A stretch of 64,000 nt of DNA from an uncultured Bacteroidales bacterium (GTDB taxonomy: Bacteria; Bacteroidota; Bacteroidia; Bacteroidales; VadinHA17), in contig CAWFKG010000005.1 of the NCBI GenBank assembly GCA_963816365.1, positions 457,850 through 521,849 of the forward strand, read 5' to 3'. The notes under the pieces are model-generated. The model was given only the letters and a program-made list of their open reading frames with translations. It made no database searches and was not told the origin of the DNA. A program made the translations under genes and the position numbers. How positions within the stretch are numbered: the stretch's first letter is position 1; every line of letters begins with the position of its first letter. Below are positions 24,125 through 38,689 of this stretch, one piece after another.

Positions 24125-26120
24125 TTAATCATCAAGGCCTGACTGGTCTATCATCTTGACTTTTTCTTCAAGTGTTTTAATAAGTTTTTTTGCATTGTCT
24201 ATTTTCTCTTCAACTTCTTTGATCATGGTATCTGCATTTGTCGATTTTGCAAAGAAGCCAATATTATTCTCCCACAAAACTATATCGCCCTCAAGCTGTT
24301 TGATCTTAGTAAAGAATTTATCTCTTTCATTCCGCACTTTCCTTGATGCTTTCGGATTTGCTTTAAGGTTATCGAGCTTGGTTTTATATTTAAGTATGCT
24401 TTTATCCTCATCGCCGATTTTCAGCTTATCAAACTCTTTATTGATAGCGGTCCTGTATTTATTTGTTATCTCATCTTTAAGATTAAAAGGGACAAAACCA
24501 ATCTCGGTCCATTTCCTCTGCAGCTCTTTCAGTCGTTCGAATGCAGCCTGAACATCAGTTCCGGGATCAAATTTTTCAAGTTCCTCAATAATAGCAAGTT
24601 TTGCCTTTAAATTATCTTCATATGAAGTATCAAGAGCAGCAAAAAATTCAGTTTTCCTGTTGAAAAAATGATCACAGGCTTTGCGGAATCTTTTCCAGCA
24701 TCTTTCTGATTGTTTTCTTGGTACAGGACCTATTTCTTTCCATTCTTTCTGAAGTTTAATAAGAGCATCGGAGGTTGCTTTCCAGTCTGTGCTTTCCTGA
24801 AGAGCTTCTGCCTGAATACATAATTCTGTCTTCAGTTGAAGGTTATTCAGCTGGATCTCTTTGTTATCAGCATAGAATCCTCTTTTCTTCTCAAAGAAGG
24901 CATCGCATGCTTCCCTGAATCTCTGATATACTTTATTATTCTGTTTCTTTGGAGCAAATCCTATTGTCCGCCACATTTTCTGAAGCTCAACAACCTTATC
25001 GGCTCTCTCATCAAATTCCTTGAAGTTTTTAATTTCAAGCATGTTGATAGCATCCACTTCTTCACACAGACGCTATTTTAGCATCAAGGTTTTTCTTTTG
25101 ATCGTCTTTCTGCTTTTCAAAGTACTCGTGATGTCTCTTGTTGATCTGAGAAGTTGCTTCTTTAAACCTTTCCCAGATTTCATTTTTTGATTCCTGAGGA
25201 ACCGGTCCTATTTCACGCCATTGATTATGAAAGTCCTGCAACGATCTGAATGCATTAACAGGATTAGGCTCGAGTAAAAGTTCTTCAGCCTTTTCACACA
25301 AAAGAACCTTTGCTTCAAGGTTCTTTTTCAGATCAAGGTCCCTTAATTCCTTGTTGATCTTAATATAATCGTAGAATATTTCTACATAATGATGATAATT
25401 CTCCCAGAGGTCTTTGAGGGAGGTCTGGGGAACAACTCCGATTGAATGCCATTCATTCTGGAGAGATCTGAAATCATGAAAAGTCTTATTTATTGACTCC
25501 TCCCTGTTTACCAGATCTTTGATTTTATCAATTATATCGTATTTCTTCTTAAGGTTCTCATATTTTTCAGCTTCCTGAATCTTATTATAGTCAGTCTTCT
25601 TCTCTTTGTATTTTTCAAGCAGATGTTTTACACGCGCATCATCAGGATCAACCCATTGCCTGTAGTCTTCGATCTTACCCCCTTCAGCCAGAAATTTTGC
25701 TTTTCTTTCCTCTGATTCACTTTTTAATTTCTTATAAAACAGGATCTTAATCCGTTCAACATCTTCCCTGATCTCAACAGCAGGCCGGTTTTCAATAATC
25801 AGACCCAGAGTTTCAACCAGTTCATGTTTGGAGTATCCTGAATAATCAACCTGAGGAAGTTCAATATCCTCAAATGAATGAGTATCCTCATGAGCCGGTT
25901 CTGCTTTATCAGTGGCTGGTTTAGAATCTTCAACAGGCTTATGTACCTCATTTTCAGTGACTATCTCTGGTTGCTCTTCTTTCTTTTCAGCTTCTCCCAA
26001 AGAGTCAGGTTCTTGCGCGTTTTCCGCTTGAGTGGCATCCTCAGTTCCAGGGGCTTTTTCATTTACCCCGGATTGTTCTTCACGAACAGAGTCATCCGGA
26101 TTTTTCTTGGTCATAATCAA
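24125..26120 (-). CDS. DUF349 repeat protein; one frame disruption
   Basis: Fragments 25062..26120 and 24125..25057 both carry the repeating W..IG.VP....E.WERF..A.D.FF unit. The junction ..LDAKIA|LCEEVDAINMLEI is restored by deleting one T near 25068. Confidence 0.75.
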
Positions 26121-26372: not shown

Positions 26373-26552
26373 ATGCATAACTATGAAATTCTAATTTTTG
26401 TTGCGGCTATGGCTGTTCTGGCTATCAGGCTATATCAGAAATATGTAAAGAAAACTAAAGGCAATCAGGGATTTGATTCAAGGTCAGCAACTGGTACTTC
26501 GTTCCCATCCACTGCAAAAGATGATGATTATGAACCTTATTCAAAAAAATAA
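26373..26552 (+). CDS. possible 59-aa single-pass membrane protein (below the ORF-track cutoff)
   Basis: My translation: MHNYEILIFVAAMAVLAIRLYQKYVKKTKGNQGFDSRSATGTSFPSTAKDDDYEPYSKK*. It has one N-terminal TM helix and a polar tail. No homology was recognised. Confidence 0.3.
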   Translation: MHNYEILIFVAAMAVLAIRLYQKYVKKTKGNQGFDSRSATGTSFPSTAKDDDYEPYSKK

Positions 26553-26559
26553 ACAGGAT

Positions 26560-27855
26560 TCATCTCCTGTTTTTTGAAAGCATGTACCGGAATGGATTGA
26601 CTAACTTTTGAAGAAGCCTTATATTCTCAGTGATAATTTCTGCTGTACCCTGCATATTCTGAGTAAACTCAAGATTTGTTCCATATAATGTTGTGAGTCC
26701 CTCTGGAAGCTCAATTTCAATAACATATGCATCACCTGAGGGAACAAGCGATTTGGATTTTACAATACCTCTCACCATTCCATATTCAAGATAAGGGTAT
26801 CCGCTGAGTTTGATATTAACCAGCATGCCGGTTTTTACTTTACCCGATCTTTCCATCTTCAGATTTATCCTGCCAAGATAATTTCCGGCTTCCAGAGGAA
26901 CAATACTGACTACCGGTTCATCTTTTACAACTGACTGGTTTGCACTCCAGAACTTGGTAAATGAAACAATTCCTTCAATCGGAGAAATAAGAAGATAAGT
27001 GTTTTCCCATGAGTTTATCTGAGCATTCAGATTCAAAAATGATTCACGCAAAACAGAAACATATTTGTCCTTCTCCTCCACCTGGGTAATCCGGTAATCC
27101 TGAAGAAGCTGGCGTTTTTCAGCCAGTTCAATTGATTTTGCAGAGTGATCGAGTCGTGCCTGCTGCAGTTCAATATTTACCATCAACAACGCCTGGTGTG
27201 ATTTTTCAAGATCACTTTCTGGTATCACCTTGCCGGCATAAAGCGAGGAATCTCTGTTATATTTTTTGGTTTCAATCCGCTGATTTTCAGTATACCACTT
27301 TTCCTTAACGCTCAGCTTATTGATAAATTCCTGAATTCCTTTTATCTCATCGGTCAGTGAAGCTATTTTGTTTCCATAAAAATCATTGATTTGATAATTA
27401 TTCAGGTCAGACAGGTTCTTCAGAAAAGTTCCATAAAAACCCTGAAGTTCACCAAGCTCAGAAAACATTGGAAGCGATCTGTAAGACAACAGTTCAGGAT
27501 TCCTAATAGTGTCAATTGTCTGTTTCAGCAATTCGATCTCATTCATTGAAGCAGTTGTTTCCATTACAGCAACCAACTGACCGGCATGTACTTTTTCTCT
27601 TTCTTTTACATATAGTGATTTTATATGACCTGTTATTTTAGTCACAAGTGTTACAGGTGGATTTGTAGTAGTAATTTCAACAGGAGCAGGGATAGTATCG
27701 GGATATTTAATTAGCCAGGCAAAGAGAATAAAAAGGACAAATATCAGAAGCATTATTGTAGTGCCCCATCGAAGGATTCTTCTGGGTGGTCTTCCCATAA
27801 TTTCTTTTACAGGATCAGAATATAATATTTCAGGTCTCTGGTTCTTCATTTGCAA
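26560..27855 (-). CDS. HlyD-family secretion adaptor (bacteriocin/peptide export accessory)
   Basis: N-terminal TM (TTIMLLIFVLFILFAWLI), a lipoyl-like segment (GHIKSLYVKEREKVHAGQLVAVME), a long coiled coil and a C-terminal beta-barrel. The stop lies 2 nt from the upstream ABC gene. Confidence 0.85.
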   Translation of the reverse strand: MQMKNQRPEILYSDPVKEIMGRPPRRILRWGTTIMLLIFVLFILFAWLIKYPDTIPAPVEITTTNPPVTLVTKITGHIKSLYVKEREKVHAGQLVAVMETTASMNEIELLKQTIDTIRNPELLSYRSLPMFSELGELQGFYGTFLKNLSDLNNYQINDFYGNKIASLTDEIKGIQEFINKLSVKEKWYTENQRIETKKYNRDSSLYAGKVIPESDLEKSHQALLMVNIELQQARLDHSAKSIELAEKRQLLQDYRITQVEEKDKYVSVLRESFLNLNAQINSWENTYLLISPIEGIVSFTKFWSANQSVVKDEPVVSIVPLEAGNYLGRINLKMERSGKVKTGMLVNIKLSGYPYLEYGMVRGIVKSKSLVPSGDAYVIEIELPEGLTTLYGTNLEFTQNMQGTAEIITENIRLLQKLVNPFRYMLSKNRR

Positions 27856-27857
27856 TC

Positions 27858-30044
27858 TTAACTGCCTAGTTCAAGTTGATTTTTAACAAGATTATAATAG
27901 GCACCCTTTTTCCCGATAAGCGAATCATGAGTGCCGGTTTCAATTATCCTGCCGCTGTCAAGAACAACTATTTTATCAGCGTCTCTCACTGTGCTAAGCC
28001 TGTGTGCCACCACAATCACTGTTTTGCCTTCAAAAAATTCAGCCAGATTTTCAACAATTACTTTTTCATTATTGGCATCGAGTGAATTAGTAGCTTCATC
28101 AAAAATGATTATATCGGGATTTTTATAGATCACCCTGGCAATGAGCAACCTTTGCTTCTGACCTTCACTCAGGCCATGGCCATTTGCTCCTATTTTGGTA
28201 TTATATCCGAGCGGAAGTGACTCAATAAATCCTTTTATGTTTGCAATATCGACTGCCTTTATAAGTCGTTCTTCATCAATTTCTTCACTTCCGGGTGCAA
28301 TATTTGCAGCAATAGTGTCGGGGAATAAAAAGCCATCCTGCATTACAGCGCCCACTTTTTCCCGCCATATTTTAAGACTGATATTTGACAAGCGCAGGTC
28401 ACCTATAAGTATTTCACCTGAAACAGGATGATAAAACCCAAGAAGCATCTTCAACAGTGTTGTTTTGCCGCTTCCGCTGGTTCCGACAATTGCTGTTATT
28501 TTGTTTTCCTCAATGAACAGGTCGATATCTTTTAGTGCAAATGGCGAACGCGGACCCTCATACTGGTACGAAAGACCATTAAAATAGATATCCTTTTTTT
28601 CGGGAAGTTTCCGTACTTTAACTTCCGGATCAGGTTCCTCCTCTTCAAGATTATGAACTTCGGCAAGCCGGTCAAGACTCATTTTTGCATCCTGTGACAT
28701 ACGAAAAAAGCCAATTATCTGACTTACCGGCACATTAAGCTGACCTATAATAAACTGGACCGCAAGCATCATACCCAATGTCATATCACCCTTGAGAACT
28801 GCTGTAGCAGCAACAATTGTAATCAGTACATTGGTCACTTCATTTATAAAGGTTGCTCCGGCAGACTGATATTGAATGATGCTCAATCCCTTTACCTTCA
28901 ATCCAAACAAAATAGCCTGAAGCTTTTCCCAATCCCATCGCATGCTTAATTCACTCTGCGTCAGTTTGATCTCCTGCATTCCGTTAACAATATTTATTAA
29001 TTTGTTACCTGAAACTGACATTTGTTTGAAACGCTGATGATCAAGTCTTGCTCTTGATTTCATAAAAAGTGATACCCATAATATATATAATACCGACCCG
29101 GTAAGAAACAATGCAAGAATTTTAATATTGAACACTGCGAGCACAATGCCAAAAACTACCAGGTTGAAAAATGAAAACAGTATATTAAGACTGGCTGAAG
29201 TAAGAAACTCTTCAATCCTGTTATTATCTTCAATACGCTGAAGGATATCCCCGGTGAGCTTTGTATCAAAAAATGCAACCGGCAGCGACATAAGTTTCTG
29301 AAGGAATCCCGAAATGATAGCCACATTAACCCTTGATCCGATATGAAGCAACAACCAGCCTCTTATGAATTCAACCGACATTCTGCCGAAAACCAGGGCC
29401 AGCTGGGCAAAAAGGATCAGGTAAATAAAACCTATATCATTATTATTCAAACCAATATCGATAATCGCCTGGGTAAGGAATGGTATTAAAAGCTGTATGC
29501 AACTTCCCAGTAACAGGCCTAACACAAGCTGATAAAAATATTTCCTGTAAAGACGGAAATATTTAAACAGAAATTTAAATCCGTTTGCCTTTTCCTTTTC
29601 ATTCTCATTCTCAAAAAGCGATGGTGTTGGTTCAATTATTAATACAAGTCCTGATGGTTTTCCATCGACAACCGTAGATGTCCAGTTTTTGACAAATTCA
29701 TCACGGCTGAATTTTACCAGACCCACTGCCGGATCGGCAGCCCATATTTTATCATTTTGAATTTTATAAACTACGATGAAATGTTTCTGCCTCCAGTGTA
29801 CGATACATGGCAGAGGAACATTCTCAGTCATTATTTCAAAAGGAATTTTCACTCCTATTGTTCTGAATCCCAATGAATCCGCAGCTTCAGAAAGTCCAAG
29901 AAAAGAGACTCCTTCACGGGTTATATAACATTTTTTACGGAGAGATTCAAGTGAAAAATTCATTTTGTAAAATCCTGCCACCATTTTAAGGCAGGCAGGT
30001 CCGCAATCCATTGCATCAGGTTGTTTTACAAAAGGGAAAGACAT
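27858..30044 (-). CDS. peptidase-C39-domain ABC exporter (PCAT; double-glycine leader-cleaving transporter)
   Basis: N-terminal C39 domain with QPDAMDCGPACLKMV (catalytic Cys) and HWRQKHFIVVY (His). Six TM segments. NBD with GTSGSGKTTL, LSEGQKQRLLIAR and IIIFDEATNSLD. Confidence 0.9.
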   Translation of the reverse strand: MSFPFVKQPDAMDCGPACLKMVAGFYKMNFSLESLRKKCYITREGVSFLGLSEAADSLGFRTIGVKIPFEIMTENVPLPCIVHWRQKHFIVVYKIQNDKIWAADPAVGLVKFSRDEFVKNWTSTVVDGKPSGLVLIIEPTPSLFENENEKEKANGFKFLFKYFRLYRKYFYQLVLGLLLGSCIQLLIPFLTQAIIDIGLNNNDIGFIYLILFAQLALVFGRMSVEFIRGWLLLHIGSRVNVAIISGFLQKLMSLPVAFFDTKLTGDILQRIEDNNRIEEFLTSASLNILFSFFNLVVFGIVLAVFNIKILALFLTGSVLYILWVSLFMKSRARLDHQRFKQMSVSGNKLINIVNGMQEIKLTQSELSMRWDWEKLQAILFGLKVKGLSIIQYQSAGATFINEVTNVLITIVAATAVLKGDMTLGMMLAVQFIIGQLNVPVSQIIGFFRMSQDAKMSLDRLAEVHNLEEEEPDPEVKVRKLPEKKDIYFNGLSYQYEGPRSPFALKDIDLFIEENKITAIVGTSGSGKTTLLKMLLGFYHPVSGEILIGDLRLSNISLKIWREKVGAVMQDGFLFPDTIAANIAPGSEEIDEERLIKAVDIANIKGFIESLPLGYNTKIGANGHGLSEGQKQRLLIARVIYKNPDIIIFDEATNSLDANNEKVIVENLAEFFEGKTVIVVAHRLSTVRDADKIVVLDSGRIIETGTHDSLIGKKGAYYNLVKNQLELGS

Positions 30045-30162: not shown

Positions 30163-30774
30163 TTGGAAATACTATATTTGCCTATTGATACCACAAACCA
30201 CAACGGGTTGTTTAAAAGAATTTCTGATATTAATATAATAGATGGTGTTCGCAATCAGGATGATAAGATTCTGAATTGGCTTTATGACAACTATTTTCAA
30301 TCTGTTAAAAATCATGTTCTAAGTAATAGCGGTTCCGAGGAAGATGTTTCAGATGTATTTCAGGATTCCATAATCGTACTTTATAATCAGATAACCGACG
30401 ATAATCTGAATCTCACAACCGATCTGAAAGGGTATTTTTTCGGAATAGCCCGCAATGTCTGGAGCTCACAGCTCAGAAAAAAGCAAAGAACCGTGGAACT
30501 TGATATTGATCCTCCTGATGAGGAAGAACAGGAGGAACAGTCTGATCCGGCTTTGGAGCGTATAATCAGCAGGGCATTTCAGAAACTAAAACCCGATCAG
30601 CAAATGGTACTGAATTTATTTTCAGATGGTCAGACCTATGAAGAGATTGCAATAAAAATGAATCTGAAAAATGAGGTTTATGCCCGAAGGAAAAAATATC
30701 TGTGCAAGGAAGCTCTCCTGGAGCTGGTAAAAGAAGATCCTGAATATCAGGAATATATTCGTCTCCAGAAATAA
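30163..30774 (+). CDS. sigma-70 family factor with regions 2 and 4 only (ECF-like)
   Basis: Region 2-like: DVSDVFQDSIIVLY...YFFGIARNVW. An acidic linker follows. Region 4 HTH: LKPDQQMVLNLFSDGQTYEEIAIKMNL. There is no N-terminal ATG; the candidate starts are TTG 30163 or TTG 30208. Confidence 0.7.
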   Translation: MEILYLPIDTTNHNGLFKRISDINIIDGVRNQDDKILNWLYDNYFQSVKNHVLSNSGSEEDVSDVFQDSIIVLYNQITDDNLNLTTDLKGYFFGIARNVWSSQLRKKQRTVELDIDPPDEEEQEEQSDPALERIISRAFQKLKPDQQMVLNLFSDGQTYEEIAIKMNLKNEVYARRKKYLCKEALLELVKEDPEYQEYIRLQK

Positions 30775-33700
30775 AATCCGGCATACAATAAGAGAATAGT
30801 AAAATATTGAGTATGGTAATTACCTTCAGTTTATTTGAATGATACAGGGGAGCATTGTTACCGTAAACTACCAGAGCTGACCAGAAGTACGGATGAGACC
30901 TCAACTGATCGGAATTCTTTAAAAATTCCATTCTGGCTTTCTTTAAAGAAACACTCTTTGAATATCCTTTTTTAAGATTATTATAGAACATCTCAACAAT
31001 CTCTGTCCCTGATTTATCTTCAATCTCCCACATCGACATGACAACAGACTGACTTCCCGAATAAATAAAGCCACGGGCAAGACTTAAAATGCCTTCACCT
31101 GAATATAGCAATCCGGTACCCGTATTGCACGAACTCAGAACTACCATTTTTGCTTTAAGCGGGATGCCATAAATCTCGATATGTTTTGAGATAACCATCT
31201 TCCGGAGAATCATCATCCTGGCTGAAAATCAGTGTTGAATGCATAGGCTCCTTGTCATTGAGAAGAGTATGCATTGCCAGATGTATTATATCATATTTCC
31301 CTGATTCCTTCTTAAAAACTGATTCTTTTGCTTCACTGTTCTCATATAGAATTCCATTAGTCAGATCAGTTACGTACTTTGCCTCCTGCCGTGCAAACGG
31401 CAGATCATTCAGCTTTCCTAATCCTCCCTGTCTTGACATTATAGCTGACTGGATATCAATTGGTTTGGGATAATCGGGAGCAAATGCTATCAGCTTGTTA
31501 GTCTGTGCTGTTATCTTTCTTTTCTGATTCCGCGGTAAATGTTGCTGAATAGGTATACGAAATATCAAAAATGTTCATAAGATAATTAAGATCCCTGTAC
31601 ATAAGGCCTTTCTGTGAACCTTAGAAGCAGGAATAGTTTCAAATGGAATATATGAAAGAATATTATCTGGTGATATACATATCTTATCAGAAATCAGATA
31701 AGGTCTTACAGGCTCAATCAGGGATTTATACAATCTATCACCGACCTCCTGAAATTCTTTAAAATTCAGAGAGGAATTATCAGTTGGTGAGGGCATCGCC
31801 AATAAGTCTCTGAATTTTCGTACATCTTTAAAAAATAATGAATCAACCGGAAGTACAATTAACTGCTGGTTTTTTCTGTTTGCAACAAAAGTATATAGCA
31901 GGTTATCAGACAATATATAATTCACATAATTCACATTATTGCCAAGGATCTTTGGAATATCCTTAAGCTCAGCCACATGAGTATTATATTTGATCGAATA
32001 ATAGACCGGATATTCTTTTTCAAATACCAGAATCAATGAATCTCTGGATCGTATAGCGTCCAGAAGGTTTTCTTTCAGCTTATTGATCAAAACAGGGTTA
32101 GTTGTCTCCATAGCAGCCTCTTCATACAATCGTGCATTAAACAGACTTATATCCCCTTGCAGCTTCTTCTCATAATCACCTATTCCGGATGGAATATTAA
32201 GTTGTGTAGCCTGTAATTCCCTGGTTGAGGTCAGCAATCCTGCAACCTTGCTTTTTTCCGAATACTCGAATGCTTTTTCCAGATAAACACGATCAGTGTG
32301 TCTTATTGAAAAGCAGGTTGAAATCGCGTATTGCATTAAGATAGGAATCCCGGTACCGGTCACCCAGAATCAGTCTGCTGTCATCCTCACTTATATTTAT
32401 CCTGACTTTTTCAAGGAGCGAAACTATTAATTCAGAGGTATTTGCAGCAGCTAACAGGGATTTCTGGTCTTTCGATTTTTTATAGATATCCCACAATATC
32501 CTGTATTTTGTATTTAGTATCCTTAAAGATAGTCTGTCGGGTTTTATTTTATCTATTGAGGGATTAATATAGTTTTCCGCGATCTTTGCCGGCTGGTCAG
32601 GTATAAGCAGAGACTGAATTGTTTCAAGTGCGTTTAACAGTTCACCGTCATCATCCTGCGACAGGGAATATCCAATAAGAACACGGGTCTTAAGAGAGAT
32701 ATCCTGGTCATTATTCTGAAGGTATTCAATGCACTTTTTTAAACAGGCGAGCGACTTTTTATTATCAATTTTGTAATCACGAAGGTAGCTGGCATAATTG
32801 AGAAGAACCTCTATATAGCTGCGATTAGATAATCCATATCTGATTTTTGCCCGCGTCAGAGCATCTTTGAGTAACTCCTCACCCTGTTGTGCTTTACCAT
32901 TGTCGGCCAAAAAAATTGAGTAACTATTAATTATATTGTATGCCATTGGTGAATTATTGGCAATTGCGATAGCAATTACCTTTTTATAATATTCCTCTGA
33001 TTCAGCCGTCAATCCAAGAGCGCCGTATGTTATTGCTAAACTATTTATAAGGTTTATTGAGTTGTCACTGGTACTTAAGTTAAATTGCTTATAAACTGAT
33101 TCTGCTTTATCCAGATATATCTTAGCCTTAGAGAAATCTGCAAGCCTGGTATAACACCCACCGAGGTTTCCATAAAGACCTGCTATTATCTCGGGTGAAA
33201 CTTTTCCGGGTTTGACGTCTACGATAGCCAACCCATTGTTAGAATAAATCAATGTATTTTCATACTCCTGCAATTCCAGGAATGCCGCACTGAGACTAAG
33301 GTAAATTCCTGCAAGAACAGGACTGGATTCTCCATTTATTTTTTTCTCAATCTCGAGTGATTTGAATGAATACTCTTTATGCTTTTTAAAATCGCCAAGA
33401 CTAAAGTATGCTGACCCCAGATTATAAAGGGCTTTGGCATAACGTTCGTCGTATTCGCCGTCTTTCCCTTTAATTGCTAAACAAAGATCGAGGTACCTGA
33501 TTGATTCATTATAATCCTTTTTTATAAGATTATAGATCCCTATGATATAATATGATTCTGATAATAATGTATCTGCAATATTATTGGCCTTGATTTTCAG
33601 AATTAATTTTTCAACTATAGGACCGCTATTTGCCGTATCTCCATTTTTGAGCAGATGCATAAGCGCTTCATTGATCTTTTCAATCTCCTTTTCCGATTTC

Positions 33701-33855
33701 TCAATTGTACCTGATTCTATATAACTAAATGAATCATGGTCCATAGATGGAACGCAAATAATTCCCTCGCCGGCAACCTGGGAGTACCGGATAATCGTGG
33801 AAGAAAGAAGCAAACAAATCAGACCAAATCGGGAAATTTGCTTTTTAAAATTCAT
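30566..33855 (-). CDS. signal-anchored TPR-repeat CHAT-domain (caspase-fold) protease; frame-disrupted at least 4 times
   Basis: Fragment 32293..33918 is best started at ATG 33855 (MNFKKQISRFGLICLLLSS) and contains many TPRs. Fragment 31575..32363 follows. An unlisted frame segment near 31480-31600 reads KGLMYRDLNYLMNIFDISYTYSATF. Fragment 31155..31568 has the His box IIHLAMHT. Fragment 30566..31216 has the Cys box VVLSSCNTG, then HPYFWSALVVYG and a terminal TM. The junction KTY|EIYGIPLK is restored by deleting one C. Confidence 0.75.
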
Positions 33856-34088
33856 GAAATGACTGCATAATTTAGAGATTCCCCATTTATGTATTCCGGC
33901 CAAAGATAATAAAACCAAATCAAAATCATTATTTTGTTAAAAAATCAAGGTCTGTAATTATCTGATTATGTGTATATAAAAAAATATTTCAAAAATAATT
34001 GATTTTTTCGTGTCACAAATCGATATCATCCGACATGTATGAGTGTAGAAATTTAAATTAAGAATTACCCTGACTAATAAAAAAAGCT

Positions 34089-34223
34089 ATGAAAACCCTG
34101 AATTCAAAATTAATGAGTGACATTTTTGCAGAATTTGAACTTTCCAATGAAGAGATGATTTGTGTTCGTGGCGGAGAAGGTGATCCGATAATAAAACCGG
34201 TTCAGCCTCCGATAATAATCTGA
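34089..34223 (+). CDS. 44-aa double-glycine-leader peptide precursor (predicted PCAT substrate)
   Basis: My translation (below the ORF-track cutoff): MKTLNSKLMSDIFAEFELSNEEMICVRGG|EGDPIIKPVQPPIII*. The leader L(-12)S N E E(-8)M(-7) I C V(-4)R G G fits the LSxxELxxIxGG consensus. A dedicated terminator follows. Confidence 0.7.
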   Translation: MKTLNSKLMSDIFAEFELSNEEMICVRGGEGDPIIKPVQPPIII

Positions 34224-34234
34224 AAGCTTTTATC

Positions 34235-34260
34235 TCTGTTTTAGAGAAAACAGATTTTTT
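34235..34260 (+). terminator. intrinsic terminator of the GG-peptide gene
   Basis: TCTGTTTT (34235-34242), loop AGAG, AAAACAGA (34247-34254), then T6 (34255-34260). Confidence 0.7.
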
Positions 34261-34438
34261 GTTGTCTTATACTGTAAGTTATTTATTGTAAGATTCATCT
34301 TATAATATAATAAGTAATCAGAATTGCTTCTCCGAAGCGTTGTTTATAGAGCTATGCTACTGATATTGTGCAGGTTATATGATTGCACTGAAGTGGTGAA
34401 TAATTAGGATTAATTTGTAACGATATAATATATTATCT

Positions 34439-35189
34439 ATGAAAACAATTGATTTTTCATATTTCATCGAGAGGTATAATGCCGGAGAGATGAGTGATAC
34501 TGAAATACAATGGTTCCGAAAGGAGCTTCAGGGAAATGATAAGCTCCGGGATGAGGTCAATCTCAGGAAGCGAACTGATGAGATTCTGAAACGGCAGAAT
34601 GTTATGGCATTACGCAGTAAGCTCTCAGCAATTGAAAATCAGAGAAAAGAGGTAAGTGAACCTGTAAAAAACTCAAAGAAGACGGCCTTAATAAGATATG
34701 CAGCCATTATATCGGGCATCATTCTTATTGGAAGTATCACATTGTACTCAGGGAAAAATCTGAACAGTGAGAAGATCATGAAACGCTATTATAAAGTGTA
34801 TGAGCCACCTACCAGCCAAAGGTCGGCTCTTGCCGGAACTGATGCCGAGTTCACTCTGGCACTGGAGTTCTATAATACGCATGATTATCAGAATGCAGCC
34901 ATTCTCTTCAGCCAGGATGCTTGAAAAGAAGCCAAATGATATGCAGACAGCTCTATTAAAAGGAGTATCAAATTTCGAAGAGAAGAAATATCCCGAAGCC
35001 AAACAGTCATTCGGAAAAGTAATTGATGACAAGAACAACCTTTATATTGATCAGGCTCAGTGGTATCTGGCCCTATGTTACCTCAACACCAATGAAACGG
35101 ACAAAGCAAAACAGCTCTTCAGAATAATTGGAAACGAGGGCGGCATATATAAAAAGGATGCTAAAAAGATAATAAGAGGACTAAAGTAA
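34439..35189 (+). CDS. single-pass membrane protein with an anti-sigma-like N-terminus and extracytoplasmic TPRs; one frame disruption
   Basis: 34439..34924 has FIERYNAGEMSDTEIQWFRKELQGNDKLRDEV and the TM IRYAAIISGIILIGSITLY. 34800..35189 has TPRs (KYPEAKQSFGKVI.., AQWYLALCYLNTNETDKAKQLF). The junction LFSQ|MLEKKPND is restored by deleting one G near 34917. Confidence 0.6.
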
Positions 35190-35268: not shown

Positions 35269-36027
35269 ATGGATTCATCGAATAAAATGATAAGTTGTCC
35301 AACAGTTTTAACAGGGATCTCTCATGAAATGAGAACGCATATGAATGCAATCGTTGCATTCTCGTTTCTCATGAAAGATAATTGTTGCAACAATTCAGAC
35401 CGCGATGAATTCAGCAGCCAGATTTTAATTGCATGTGAACAGTTAATTGGTTTGTTTGATAGCTTTCTTGATTCAGCCATAATTGATACGGGTAATTCAA
35501 AGGCTGATTCAAAAATTTGCAGGCTCGATACTTTTCTTGATGACCTTCTTTCAGAATTCAGGGAAGAACTAAAAAAAGAAGGTCATAAGGAAATTGAGCT
35601 TGTCACCGAGATCCAATTCTCAAATTCTGCAGAGGTTAATATTGATAAGAACAAGATTTACAGGGTAATTCGAAGTCTGTTCCAGAATTCAATAAAAAAC
35701 ACTAAGTCAGGGTATATCAAAATTGGATACTTTCTCAGGGACGATAAAGTAAACTTCTATGTTCTCGATTCCGGCCAGGGCTATTTCAAATGTAAGGAAT
35801 TCATTCAGACAGAGGATTTAAATGAATCGCTGATACTTCACAATGATACCTATACAGCTATCAATATTACCCTTGCCAAGAAATTAATTGAGATGCTTGG
35901 AGGAACTATTTTCGTTGAATGTAACGGGCTTACAGGAACAGGAGTCTATTTCTCTGTTCCGGCAAAGTTAGTAGTCAGCTCTGACATTAATATTAATAAA
36001 TATTTAAATACCATGATCGCGATCTGA
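35269..36027 (+). CDS. soluble histidine kinase core (HisKA plus HATPase_c) with no input domain
   Basis: H box GISHEMRTHMNAIVAF. N box FQNSIKNTKSG. G boxes LDSGQG and GLTGTGVYFSVP. No TM segment and no receiver domain. Confidence 0.75.
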   Translation: MDSSNKMISCPTVLTGISHEMRTHMNAIVAFSFLMKDNCCNNSDRDEFSSQILIACEQLIGLFDSFLDSAIIDTGNSKADSKICRLDTFLDDLLSEFREELKKEGHKEIELVTEIQFSNSAEVNIDKNKIYRVIRSLFQNSIKNTKSGYIKIGYFLRDDKVNFYVLDSGQGYFKCKEFIQTEDLNESLILHNDTYTAINITLAKKLIEMLGGTIFVECNGLTGTGVYFSVPAKLVVSSDININKYLNTMIAI

Positions 36028-36077: not shown

Positions 36078-36112
36078 CAAATGGCTGTTTTACCAATAGA
36101 CAGCCATTTTTT
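36078..36112. terminator. bidirectional hairpin terminator between the kinase gene and the ompA-like gene
   Basis: AAATGGCTGT (36078-36087) pairs with ACAGCCATTT (36099-36108). It is flanked by an A run upstream and a T run downstream. Confidence 0.7.
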
Positions 36113-38052
36113 TATTTTGTTAATTCAACAATCTTTGCTTCAGTCCGTCTGTTCAGTTTTCTGCCTTCGGAGGTGATATTATCTCCAAGAGGTGAAGTAT
36201 TTCCATAGCCTTTGTATTTTAGTCTGTCAGAAGAAATTCCCTTCTTTATAAGATAGTTGACGACTGACAAAGCCCTTTTTTCAGACAAGGTCTGATTATA
36301 TTCAACCGATCCGGTCGAATCGGTATAACCTCCGATTTCCATAACCAGATTCTTATTATCCGACAGAAGATTTGCCAGGTTATCTAACTCTGTCATTGAT
36401 TCCTGCTTTAACTGCCATGAGTCAATTTCATAGAACACATTTGACAGTTGCATCTTCTCTCCTACTTTTGCAGGATTCAGCACGATCCTTTTTATATATG
36501 GTTGAGAAGCACTGTGCTTTCCCGCAAACATAAAGTTTTCAGAATAAAAAAGATAACCTGGTTTACTGACATTTATGCCATAATTATAGCCTGAAGGCAG
36601 GCATACCAGAAAATTACCGGTTTCATCTGTGGCATTTTTAAAGATAATCTTGCCAGTTGACAGATTAATAAGCTCATAATCTGCCTTTAATAATTTGCCG
36701 GTTTCCTTATCGTATACCTTTGCCTTTCATATAAGAGACAGGATTCGGTCTTGCAGATTCATACAAATCAAAAGAAAATATATCTTTTCCGTTAGACTTA
36801 TCCCTGACAGATGAATAATAGGCTTTTTGTCCACCTGATTCTATTATCAGACCCATTTCATCATTCCAGGTATTAATAGGATAACCAAGATTCTTAGGCT
36901 CAGTCCATGTACTGTCATCTTTCAGCCTGGTCACATATAGATCAAACCCTCCCATTCCTACCCTTCCGTCGGATGCAAAATAGAGCGTTTTCCCATCGAA
37001 GTGAATGAAAGGTGACATTTCATCTCCTTCGGTATTAATCAAACCTCCCATGTTCACAGGTTCTATCCATTGATTCTTCGCATTCAATCTTGTATACCAG
37101 ATGATCTTTGCCGCCAAATCCTCCGGGTCTGCTGCTCGAAAAGAAAAGTGTTCTGCCATCTGCGCTTACTGAGGGTGTCGACTCCCAGTGTTTGGTATTT
37201 ACCGGAGCTCCCAGATTTGATGGTTCAGACCATTTGCCATTGCTGAAAGCTGAAAAATAAAGATCACAGTTTCCTAATCCGCCCGGCCGGTTACAGGCAG
37301 TAAAGTACATGTAACTTCCGTCGGAGGAAAGAGTTTGGGCTCCTTCATTCTGATCAGTATTCAACGGAGCTCCTGCATTGTATGCGTTCTGCCAGACCTT
37401 GTTCTCAAAATGACTGACATAAAAATCCTCCTGGACAATTCCTTTGAACCCCGGATTATTAGTTATATTTGGCTGCCGTGTAAACATAAGTGTCATTCCA
37501 TCAGCGGTTATGGAAGGCCAGTATTCGTCATCACTTGTATTTATCCCGGGACCTACACTTACCGGACTGAAGGGCACCGGTTTCTTCATTTCCTTGATTG
37601 CAAATTCACAGTTTTTAATGCTTTTTACATGCTACTGCTTTGTTCTTGGCTGACATCCCTTGCTGTGCCTCATATACCTTGAAATGAATCAGCGCATCAG
37701 CGTAACTTCCCGACATCATTTCAGCATTTGCCAGATTGAAAAAAACAGGCTTGAAAAAAAGAGAATCAAGCTTTACAGCTGATCTATAGTTAACGGCAGC
37801 TTCACTATACCGGTTTTGCTTTTCCAGCAGTTCTCCCAGCATAATATATGCTTCATAGAAAGTCTTATCAATAGAGATTGCTGACCTGAAATCATTTTCA
37901 GCTTTTATGAAATCGAGGTAATCATAAGAGGACACTCCTTCTTTATAAATTTTAAGAGCTCTATTTGAGTTTGTATGCAAGCTCTGGGCAATTCCTGACA
38001 AGGGAAAAAAACAGCAGATCGTTGAAATTAATATAGTTTGAAAGTACTTCAT
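36112..38052 (-). CDS. TPR / PD40 (TolB-like) / OmpA-C-domain outer-membrane-associated protein; frame-disrupted 3 times
   Basis: Fragment 37615..38052 has the signal peptide and TPRs. Fragments 37035..37589 and 36707..37159 have PD40 repeats (DEYWPSITADG, SADGRTLFFSS, FDGKTLYFASD). The frame of 36112..36531 extends upstream to ~36720 (KVYDKETGKLLKADYELINLSTGKII..) and ends in OmpA_C (GYTDSTGSVEYNQTLSEKRALSV). Confidence 0.75.
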
Positions 38053-38059
38053 TATTGAA

Positions 38060-38689
38060 TCATGGAATATGCATGTATTTGTGAACCTGAAGTGAAATTT
38101 TCCAAACCGGGTTTTTCTTAATATAGCTAACTATCTCAGGTATAATATAATCAAATCTGCTCCACTCAGGTTGAAGATATAATCTGCATTTATTGTTAAC
38201 CATTCCACGATATTTTTCTGCCCATTCAAAATCGCTTTTATCCTGTACAATAACTTTAAGCTCATCAGCAACCTTACAGATCTTAGAGTCAGGCGGCATG
38301 TTTTTTTTCGGTGAAAGACATATCCAGTCCCAGGTCCCGCTCAACGGATAACCTCCGGAAGTCTCTATAAAAGTACTGATATTTTTGTTTTTTAAACAGC
38401 TGCAAAGCAAATCAAGTTTCCACATCAGCGGTTCCCCTCCTGTTACGACGACAGAATCTGCACCTGAGTCAATAACATGGTCTATGATTGTTTTTGTATT
38501 AACCATAGGGTGCATATCAGGATTCCAGGCAAAACGTGAATCACACCAGCTGCATCCGATATCGCATCCTCCCAGTCTTATAAAATATGCTGCTTTGCCG
38601 GTATGAAATCCTTCCCCCTGCAAAGAAAAAAACTCTTCCACAACCGGCAGTAATATTCCATCTGATATTATCCTGGACTTTGATTTCAC
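38060..38689 (-). CDS. queE: 7-carboxy-7-deazaguanine synthase (radical SAM)
   Basis: VVEEFFSLQGEGFHTGKAAYFIRLGGCDIGCSWCDS is the QueE CxxxCxxC cluster context; ~209 aa. Confidence 0.85.
   Translation of the reverse strand: MKSKSRIISDGILLPVVEEFFSLQGEGFHTGKAAYFIRLGGCDIGCSWCDSRFAWNPDMHPMVNTKTIIDHVIDSGADSVVVTGGEPLMWKLDLLCSCLKNKNISTFIETSGGYPLSGTWDWICLSPKKNMPPDSKICKVADELKVIVQDKSDFEWAEKYRGMVNNKCRLYLQPEWSRFDYIIPEIVSYIKKNPVWKISLQVHKYMHIP

Follow-up and report, generated by a model that had tools for sequence, protein, structure and literature searches.

A double-glycine leader peptide family placed in a regulatory gene cassette of uncultured Bacteroidales, with a possible role as signalling ligand

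Peptides with a double-glycine (GG) leader that are exported by peptidase-C39 ATP-binding cassette (ABC) transporters (PCATs) are known from two roles, i.e., toxins and, in Gram-positives, pheromones that two-component systems sense. GG peptides associated with PCATs have already been reported in Bacteroidales (PMC10352776; PMC12219008). In this study, a small GG peptide gene was analyzed at 34089..34223 on the plus strand of a 64,000-nucleotide stretch, hereafter the window, from an uncultured Bacteroidales bacterium of the VadinHA17 lineage (GenBank assembly GCA_963816365.1, contig CAWFKG010000005.1, positions 457,850 to 521,849). The best reading of the locus is an unmodified peptide, cleaved and exported by a PCAT, that would be the ligand or the output of a pathway formed by a sigma factor of the extracytoplasmic function (ECF) type, a candidate anti-sigma factor and a protease with tetratricopeptide repeats (TPR) and a CHAT domain; the function was inferred from sequence and gene context. 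The product is probably a self-made signalling peptide, of a kind not yet described in Bacteroidota. In the literature, neither this peptide family nor the coupling of a GG peptide to an ECF sigma/TPR-CHAT module was found described. The main features of the locus are as follows.

26560..27855, minus strand: HlyD-family membrane fusion protein, assigned by library match and absent from about 30 loci, i.e., type B.
27858..30044, minus strand: PCAT of 728 amino acids (aa), the predicted leader peptidase and exporter.
30163..30774, plus strand: ECF sigma factor, i.e., TIGR02937 at 56.1 bits (cutoff 42.9) with Sigma70_r2 and r4_2 domains.
30747..33855, minus strand: gene of the caspase-like TPR-CHAT protease, split in four frames by 1-nucleotide (nt) insertions or deletions (indels), intact with 1034-1055 aa in relatives.
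33983..34040, plus strand: promoter-like element of the peptide gene, i.e., an A/T-rich part AAAAATAATTGATTTTTTCGT and then GTCACAAA-N13-ACATGT at 34012-34038.
34089..34223, plus strand: GG-leader peptide precursor gene, with the leader at 34089-34175 and the core at 34176-34220.
34439..35189, plus strand: single-pass TPR membrane protein, 249 aa in relatives, with one frameshift near 34914 in the window.
35269..36027, plus strand: soluble histidine kinase core of 252 aa, with HisKA and HATPase_c domain matches.

In the Gram-positive ComC/CSP-ComAB, BlpC-BlpAB and PlnA systems, the peptide is short and unmodified, bears an LSxxE(L/M)xx(I/V)xGG leader and is encoded near a C39-ABC exporter, and its gene is placed under a dedicated promoter, which is inducible in those systems. 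The present locus resembles them in these parts. However, its host is a Gram-negative Bacteroidales bacterium, its leader is longer (29 aa), and neither a membrane sensor kinase nor a LytTR regulator belongs to it; the place of these is taken by an ECF sigma factor, a TPR membrane protein and a TPR-CHAT protease. The histidine kinase lacks both a transmembrane (TM) segment and a sensor domain, and three long contigs showed no response regulator in the cassette. The adjacent polytopic sensor kinase and response regulator of ComCDE/Agr-like loci were not present.

The closest precedent is DdvS/DdvA of Myxococcus xanthus, an ECF sigma factor with an anti-sigma factor that bears a periplasmic TPR-CHAT (PMC11506125). 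DdvA is the only studied case outside CRISPR (clustered regularly interspaced short palindromic repeats) systems; signal-induced, site-1-like self-cleavage has been proposed for it, and the signal is unknown (PMC11506125). The locus in the window likewise combines an ECF sigma factor with a predicted periplasmic TPR-CHAT having a His-Cys dyad. Unlike in DdvA, this TPR-CHAT is a separate, C-terminally anchored protein that is not fused to an anti-sigma domain, and no sequence relation between the two was detectable. A small TPR protein that lacks a zinc motif is the candidate anti-sigma factor. A further difference is that the locus encodes its own predicted secreted peptide and exporter, with no CBASS (cyclic oligonucleotide-based antiphage signalling system) or CRISPR regulon.

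A functional analogy is found in the sigma-E/RseA/DegS system of Escherichia coli, in which the C-termini of misfolded porins (YxF-COOH) activate a periplasmic PDZ serine protease. In a similar manner, the hydrophobic C-terminal end of the present peptides, i.e., PP-Φ-x-Φ-COOH, could activate a site-1 protease that removes an anti-sigma factor. The protease would be a CHAT instead of a PDZ serine protease, and the proposed ligand is a dedicated ribosomal peptide, not a misfolded porin.

The open reading frame (ORF) of the peptide has 44 codons and a stop, and is translated as MKTLNSKLMSDIFAEFELSNEEMICVRGGEGDPIIKPVQPPIII. When the precursor was split at the GG, a leader MKTLNSKLMSDIFAEFELSNEEMICVRGG of 29 aa, ending in VRGG, and a core EGDPIIKPVQPPIII of 15 aa were obtained. 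Counted back from the GG, V-4, M-7, E-8, S-11 and L-12 were read directly from the translation. The leader has the GG end, the hydrophobic residues at -4, -7 and -12 and the acidic residue at -8, and it matches LSxxELxxIxGG apart from two conservative replacements, L to M and I to V. The original prediction had described such a leader at this ORF, and its coordinates, translation and leader positions were all reproduced. In the 64-kb window, it was the sole small Met-preceded ORF with the motif E-[LIVMF]-x2-[LIVMFA]-x-G-[GAS], and it is intact, unlike several indel-split genes of the window. The ORF had also been called unannotated. This is right for the ORF track of the earlier reader, but not for NCBI, ENA and JGI, where close homologues are listed as hypothetical protein.

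A hairpin follows the gene, starting at the 12th nt past the stop.

34235..34260, plus strand: weak terminator-like hairpin with T6, of an 8-bp stem and a 4-nt loop.

The stem TCTGTTTT/AAAACAGA and the loop AGAG occupy 34235-34254. The hairpin and its T6 are present as first reported, but the terminator is weaker than implied, i.e., -6.7 kcal/mol with z = -0.49 against shuffles, and a consensus terminator scan missed it. A comparable hairpin with a T-rich tail was found 3' of the peptide gene in 45 of the 83 orthologous loci.

Homologues were searched at two scales. A set of 5.8 billion proteins gave 36 clusters, nearly all of exactly 44 aa, and a profile search of 1.84 billion representatives gave 110 clusters, almost all of 40-70 aa. 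Two long proteins of the profile search (P0195 and P0255) were rejected as spurious Gly/Asp-rich matches. The leader of the family ends in LSNEEMIxVRGG, and the core of 12-18 aa ends in PP-Φ-x-Φ or a close variant, with the C-terminal consensus [D/E/N]-P-x2-5-P-P-Φ-x-Φ-COOH. In an alignment of 37 sequences, K2, L18, E22, M23, V26, G28, G29 and P40 were invariant. Four core subtypes were seen, i.e., EGDPIIKPxxPP[IV]x[IL], NG...[DN]PT[RK]PP[IV]IIE[ILF], DPGNGD[YF]PxPPPTKI and ...PPVTxDPEI. All of them are acidic at the N-terminus, the net charge of the cores is -1 to 0, and no subtype has a conserved Cys, Ser or Thr. A search for orthologous GG peptides and a comparison of their cores had been suggested as a check on the ORF, and with about 110 clusters and a conserved core C-terminus the outcome was in its favor. 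In one locus (L015, 10001-10317), two tandem paralogous peptide genes of 46 and 41 aa with near-identical cores were observed, and the upstream promoter element was present at the first only.

The window peptide had no Pfam or NCBIfam match at E<=1, and the curated leader model (TIGR01847-like) was not matched. When family homologues were scanned at E<=10, weak matches to TIGR04149, TIGR04194 and TIGR03893 appeared in 3-8 of 37 members. The best of them, TIGR04149 at the leader (E 0.032; 8 of 37 members), is far below the level of family membership. By these searches, no curated family covers the peptides.

Selection on the gene was analyzed with 84 distinct peptide gene sequences. The valine at -4 was encoded by GTA in 41, GTT in 27, GTC in 11 and GTG in 5 of them, the arginine at -3 by CGT (43) or CGC (32), and the first glycine (-2) by GGC (40), GGT (33) or GGA (10). 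The ratio of nonsynonymous to synonymous change (pN/pS) was 0.43 over all codons; leader codons 17-29 gave 0.19 and the core 0.62, against 1.26 and 0.97 in the two off-frames. Because synonymous sites vary freely, pN/pS is 0.43 against about 1 off-frame and homologue families exist, the ORF is judged to be a real coding gene, i.e., genuinely translated, well beyond chance. Loss of the frame in orthologous regions had been named as the result that would speak against it; the frame was kept across more than 80 species with free synonymous change.

The regulatory cassette around the peptide was absent from the original prediction and is the main point of interest. One cassette holds the peptide gene in more than 130 loci from more than 80 uncultured Bacteroidales species. 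Its members are the PCAT (with or without HlyD), the ECF sigma factor, the TPR-CHAT protease, the peptide, the single-pass TPR protein and the histidine kinase. The gene order of the window was seen again in three long contigs and in 80/80 loci from GTDB contigs taken at one genome per species. The carriers are uncultured Bacteroidales and metagenome-assembled genomes labelled Rikenellaceae or assigned to Marinilabiliaceae. In metagenome loci that were found through the TPR protein and had enough upstream sequence, the peptide ORF was present in 52/54 and the promoter element in 53/54.

The exporter side of the cassette has to be weighed against a different function. The C39 ABC transporter that the original prediction had placed at 27858..30044 on the minus strand was supported by Pfam Peptidase_C39 at 7.6e-37. 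Its catalytic Cys and His motifs were kept in 65/65 intact PCAT orthologues, and the gene is syntenic with the peptide gene in the main clade. Short proline-rich peptides can be antimicrobial. A small antimicrobial like the class II microcins or bacteroidetocins, exported through PCAT-HlyD(-TolC), is an explanation to be considered, with the ECF module merely controlling its production. A GG leader, a PCAT and a membrane fusion protein form the standard microcin export set of Gram-negatives, in which small unmodified peptides are exported with or without the fusion protein, and the same GG/PCAT association occurs in Bacteroidales bacteriocins and ribosomally synthesized, post-translationally modified peptides (RiPPs) (PMC10352776; PMC12219008). 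However, bacteroidetocins and class II microcins have signals of 15-18 aa and much longer cores, are patchy and toxic, and often come with immunity genes, whereas the cores of this family have only 12-18 aa, are acidic or neutral (net charge -1 to 0) and Pro-rich, and are fixed in a regulatory cassette. The accessory, patchy or mobile distribution of microcins was not seen among the 80 species-level genomes and the 52/54 metagenome loci; more than 80 species carry the gene, fixed at the same place in the chromosome, and it is not strain-specific. No immunity gene was recognized in library scans of the window proteins, and no plasmid or phage copies of the peptide were found. The original preference for a pheromone-type peptide over a pore-forming bacteriocin is strengthened by the single site across species, the regulatory cassette, the dedicated promoter and the lack of immunity genes and of plasmid or phage copies, although signalling is still an inferred role.

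HlyD is also not a constant partner. In about 30 type B loci (core NG...PT[RK]PPVIIE[ILF]; L038, L041, L043, L044, L047, L049, L050, L053-L060, L062, L064, L067, L068, L071, L074-L076, L079-L082), HlyD is missing and the PCAT directly abuts the small membrane-protein gene that is described below. This speaks against a microcin export set, and suggests that the peptide of type B loci is delivered to the periplasm only.

The block upstream of the peptide gene is conserved over about 60 nt and ends in GTCACAAA-N13-ACATGT. This arrangement is unique in the window, where 0.01 would be expected by chance. The element was found once per locus with invariant spacing in 70/83 loci, always 43-81 nt before the peptide ATG, and it was not found at other genes in the window or in the 20-kb loci. 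At the same place, the second clade has GGGTAACA-N15/16-CCYATTAA, and one locus (L014) carries a GTAAC variant. The GT(A/C)AC box is a hallmark of ECF -35 elements. Because the second clade and L014 have GTAAC there, the left half is read as such a box, and the upstream element as a putative ECF-type -35 (GT[C/A]AC) and -10 region dedicated to the peptide gene. Reading of the 5' untranslated region (5'UTR) as a riboswitch or attenuator was dropped, with no stable or conserved structure (-3 to -9 kcal/mol), and an Rfam scan of 33800-34500 at E<=1 gave no match.

The other genes seem to follow another promoter logic. The sigma gene has the Bacteroidetes housekeeping -7 box TATATTTG in 64/69 loci, and a similar box stands before the exporter gene; both genes are predicted to be driven by ordinary Bacteroidetes sigmaA promoters. 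Because the listed TTG-start ORF of the sigma factor contains this -7 box within 30163-30215, its true start must be further downstream, probably the TTG at about 30205. Between the peptide and TPR-protein genes, no conserved sigmaA box was found (only 12/83 loci), so transcription from the peptide promoter may continue into the TPR-protein and kinase genes.

An ECF-like promoter on the peptide gene only is also what another explanation would ask for, i.e., that the peptide is an output of the ECF response: a substrate, decoy or inhibitor of the CHAT protease, or a stress-made peptide acting on the envelope. Proline-rich peptides resist proteolysis and are often protease ligands, which counts for this explanation. 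The second gene arrangement bears on it as well.

Divergent members of the family (P0257 and P0266; L164-L168) lie in another neighbourhood, i.e., among LptD, rotamases, IMPDH and RecQ. There, the peptide gene is directly followed by a co-directional TPR-CHAT gene, and this pair is convergent with a sigma gene followed by a TPR-protein gene. The sigma factor showed 30% identity to that of the window (E 5e-21), and the TPR-CHAT 26% identity over 928 aa (E 1e-69). The TPR-protein homologue was aligned by hhalign with 99.5% probability over the TM and TPR parts, with a longer N-terminus (160 aa), and its position directly downstream of sigma is the canonical sigma/anti-sigma layout. Because the four components stay together after the reshuffle, the arrangement argues for peptide, TPR-CHAT, sigma factor and TPR protein as a functional unit, not mere inherited synteny. 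The adjacent, co-directional peptide and TPR-CHAT genes are in favor of an output peptide too, but all of these gene-context arguments hold in common for a peptide that acts as ligand, and the output explanation was regarded as unlikely. The partners that were kept are TPR-CHAT, sigma factor and TPR protein and not the exporter, which again speaks against a microcin. An antimicrobial was likewise considered unlikely, and slightly the more so.

The TPR-CHAT protein starts with a signal-like segment and ends in a TM helix followed by a basic tail, with no cytoplasmic domain, and on account of these features its bulk is predicted to be periplasmic and membrane-anchored. The His/Cys dyad of the CHAT domain (IIHLAMH / LSSCNT) was kept in 56/60. 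In a PDB sequence search, only TPR proteins were hit, and no DdvA, Csx29, separase or solved CHAT structure. The stretch of the window in which TPR-CHAT is affected by indels extends from 30566 to 33918. The product of 30163..30774 is of the ECF sigma type by its domains, and had no PDB sequence match at 1e-3. In the single-pass TPR protein, an N-terminal domain of 80 aa is predicted to be followed by one TM helix (residues 83-103) and, on the periplasmic side, by three TPRs, a topology that would suit a single-pass anti-sigma factor. The AlphaFold2 model of its N-terminal domain (pLDDT 80.5) has four helices, and in Foldseek, 11 of 13 PDB chains were RslA/MucA anti-sigma cytoplasmic domains, with weak matches of E 0.88-10. 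A full-length profile searched against PDB returned generic TPRs only. The modelled fold is suggestive of the TPR protein as a candidate anti-sigma factor.

From these parts a three-step mechanism can be proposed. In the first step, which is well supported, the precursor would be translated, the PCAT encoded about 4 kb away would cleave the 29-aa leader behind VRGG with its C39 domain, and the 15-aa core would be pumped to the periplasm or, in loci with HlyD, to the cell exterior. In the second step, the core would be a regulatory ligand and not a toxin. Its C-terminus would be bound in the periplasm by the TPR domain of TPR-CHAT, by the single-pass TPR protein, or by both, while the cytoplasmic four-helix N-domain of the TPR protein would hold the ECF sigma factor of the cassette. 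TPR domains that read short, often Pro-containing unmodified peptides, as proposed here, are the feature of RRNPP receptors (Rap, NprR, PlcR, Rgg). Those are cytoplasmic transcription factors or phosphatases of Firmicutes, whereas the TPRs here are predicted to lie in the periplasm and to work together with a protease and a sigma factor. In the third step, ligand binding would lead to a site-1-like cut by CHAT that removes the periplasmic part of the TPR protein and frees the sigma factor. The freed sigma factor would transcribe the peptide gene from the GT(C/A)AC...ACATGT promoter, and would probably continue into the genes of the TPR protein and the kinase. Sigma factor and exporter would be expressed constitutively from sigmaA promoters, and the kinase mRNA or gene would be linked to the 5' end of the peptide gene by several complementary stretches of 9-17 nt. 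The outcome would be an auto-amplifying circuit, which could be private, i.e., periplasmic, or shared between cells. As a whole, the GG peptide as regulatory ligand in an auto-amplifying ECF/TPR-CHAT circuit is the best explanation, with a probability of roughly 0.5.

Several points weigh against it. Gene-order conservation is partly simple descent, because the housekeeping flanks (DUF349, PorE-like and QueE-like genes) are also syntenic in the main clade. The best anti-sigma match in Foldseek reached only E 0.88, with probability 0.85 and a template-modelling score of 0.68, and searches of Pfam, NCBIfam and PDB sequences with the N-domain of the TPR protein gave nothing beyond chance level. 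The link from sigma factor to promoter is a putative one, drawn from the co-occurrence of the two and the ECF-like shape of the element, which can also be read as an imperfect palindrome (TGTC...GACA). The palindromic-operator reading was weakened by L014 and the second clade, in which the left arm is changed to GTAAC and the right arm has no matching change. In the second arrangement, the available upstream sequence (10 kb) contained no PCAT. A classical quorum signal between cells is uncertain, because a 1.6-kDa peptide would not cross the outer membrane alone and about 30 loci are without HlyD.

The 5' end of the peptide gene showed a further connection, to the kinase gene, in which a repeated heptamer takes part.

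34067..34073, plus strand: copy of ACCCTGA in the 5'UTR; the upstream copy is at -29 to -39 from the ATG in most loci.
34095..34101, plus strand: second copy of ACCCTGA, formed by codons 3-5 (ACC CTG AAT).

The synonymous sites of codons 3-4 are frozen, i.e., Thr3 is ACC in 71/77 and Leu4 is CTG in 74/74, and pS of codons 1-5 is 0.17 against about 0.5 elsewhere in the gene. On its sense strand, the kinase gene has TCAGGG, the complement of this motif, about 10 times as often as its neighbours (4.14 against 0.3-0.6 per kb), at several sites in differing reading frames. A 65-nt peptide 5' region was then compared with the own kinase gene of each locus, with three kinds of control. The longest perfect complement had a median of 12 nt (maximum 17) against 8 in the controls, and the kinase gene was the best predicted duplex partner in 38/54 loci. 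In the window, eight complementary stretches of at least 8 nt were found; 80 control segments had 1.6 on average and never more than 5. Positions 34062-34108 are complementary to kinase sites 35406-35414, 35490-35498, 35554-35563, 35661-35671 and 35705-35714; for example, 34062-34072 pairs with 35661-35671 and 34096-34105 with 35554-35563. This predicted complementarity connects the peptide and kinase genes by evidence other than their order. It could reflect RNA pairing in cis or in trans; DNA inversion is less likely.

These results count for a reading in which the transcript is mainly a regulatory RNA, i.e., a dual-function mRNA or a cis-acting 5' region pairing with the kinase mRNA, or in which the repeats are inverted for phase variation. 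However, purifying selection on the peptide is clear and includes the core C-terminus. The complement to cognate kinase genes is only modestly longer than to distant non-cognate ones (12.0 against 10.3 nt), and a test for pairing at the RNA level found no bias of G-U over A-C in the flanks. As to inversion, the orientation is the same in all of the more than 130 readable loci, and no recombinase is nearby. Such a reading is quite improbable. The widest claim that can be built on the locus, i.e., a new type of peptide-autoinduction circuit, the first in Bacteroidota, with pairing of the 5' end to the kinase mRNA as a dual-function RNA, is held only tentatively and is rather doubtful.

Modification of the core was considered in view of the right flank of the cassette.

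36112-38052, minus strand: PorE/CHU_0125-like OmpA/PD40/TPR protein, by family assignment, adjoining the kinase gene.
38060-38689, minus strand: QueE-like radical S-adenosylmethionine (SAM) enzyme of the queuosine pathway, by family assignment.

The peptide could be the precursor of a RiPP, with the genes of its core-modifying enzymes located elsewhere. The leader similarity to TIGR04149, i.e., GG-Bacteroidales peptides modified by radical SAM enzymes, is in favor of this in leader style and phylum, although the matches are subthreshold, and a radical SAM gene is found 4 kb away. This only neighbouring radical SAM protein is QueE-like, so the sole candidate maturase is removed, and no other maturase was found nearby in the window. 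Unlike the TIGR04149 peptides, the family has no radical SAM or pseudo-radical SAM maturase and its core is not Cys-rich. No tailoring enzyme was found in either gene arrangement, and the cores have no conserved Cys, Ser or Thr. The observation of the original prediction that the core lacks a modifiable Cys or Ser/Thr cluster can be extended to the family, in which the core is never Cys/Ser/Thr-rich. A RiPP precursor is a very improbable reading.

The right flank is housekeeping-like, and its two genes are syntenic in all loci. On the left, DUF349 was found in most loci, PxpABC genes in L065 and caspase/fn3 genes in L069, and the cassette still begins at HlyD. One further small gene is placed between DUF349 and HlyD.

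26375-26551, plus strand: small single-TM protein gene of 58 aa (MHNYEILIFVAAMAVLAIRLYQ...).

This gene has its own TATATTTG box and a terminator hairpin, is found in most related loci and had no family match. It may have a role in the cassette, e.g., in immunity.

The TPR-CHAT and TPR-protein genes of the window are broken by scattered 1-nt indels in comparison with the 94.5%-identical relative L001, in which both are intact. The DUF349 (24125-26120) and PorE-like (36112-38052) genes are likewise split into several ORFs. Pseudogenisation was rejected as the reason in favor of assembly or sequencing error, since the 1-nt indels are scattered and these two flanking genes are split as well.

The constant company of this GG peptide family is not a toxin locus or a Gram-positive two-component system, but an ECF sigma factor, a TPR protein that resembles an anti-sigma factor, and a TPR-CHAT predicted to be periplasmic. 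Should the peptide be the ligand, no signalling system based on a peptide would have been described earlier in Bacteroidota, and no ECF pathway in which a dedicated ribosomal peptide is the gate. TPR-CHAT/ECF pathways would gain a defined, synthesizable ligand, and the locus would be a tractable model of TPR-CHAT switching outside CRISPR systems. Because the parts are small and the core can be synthesized, the circuit would be directly testable in a heterologous host, even though its carriers are uncultured.

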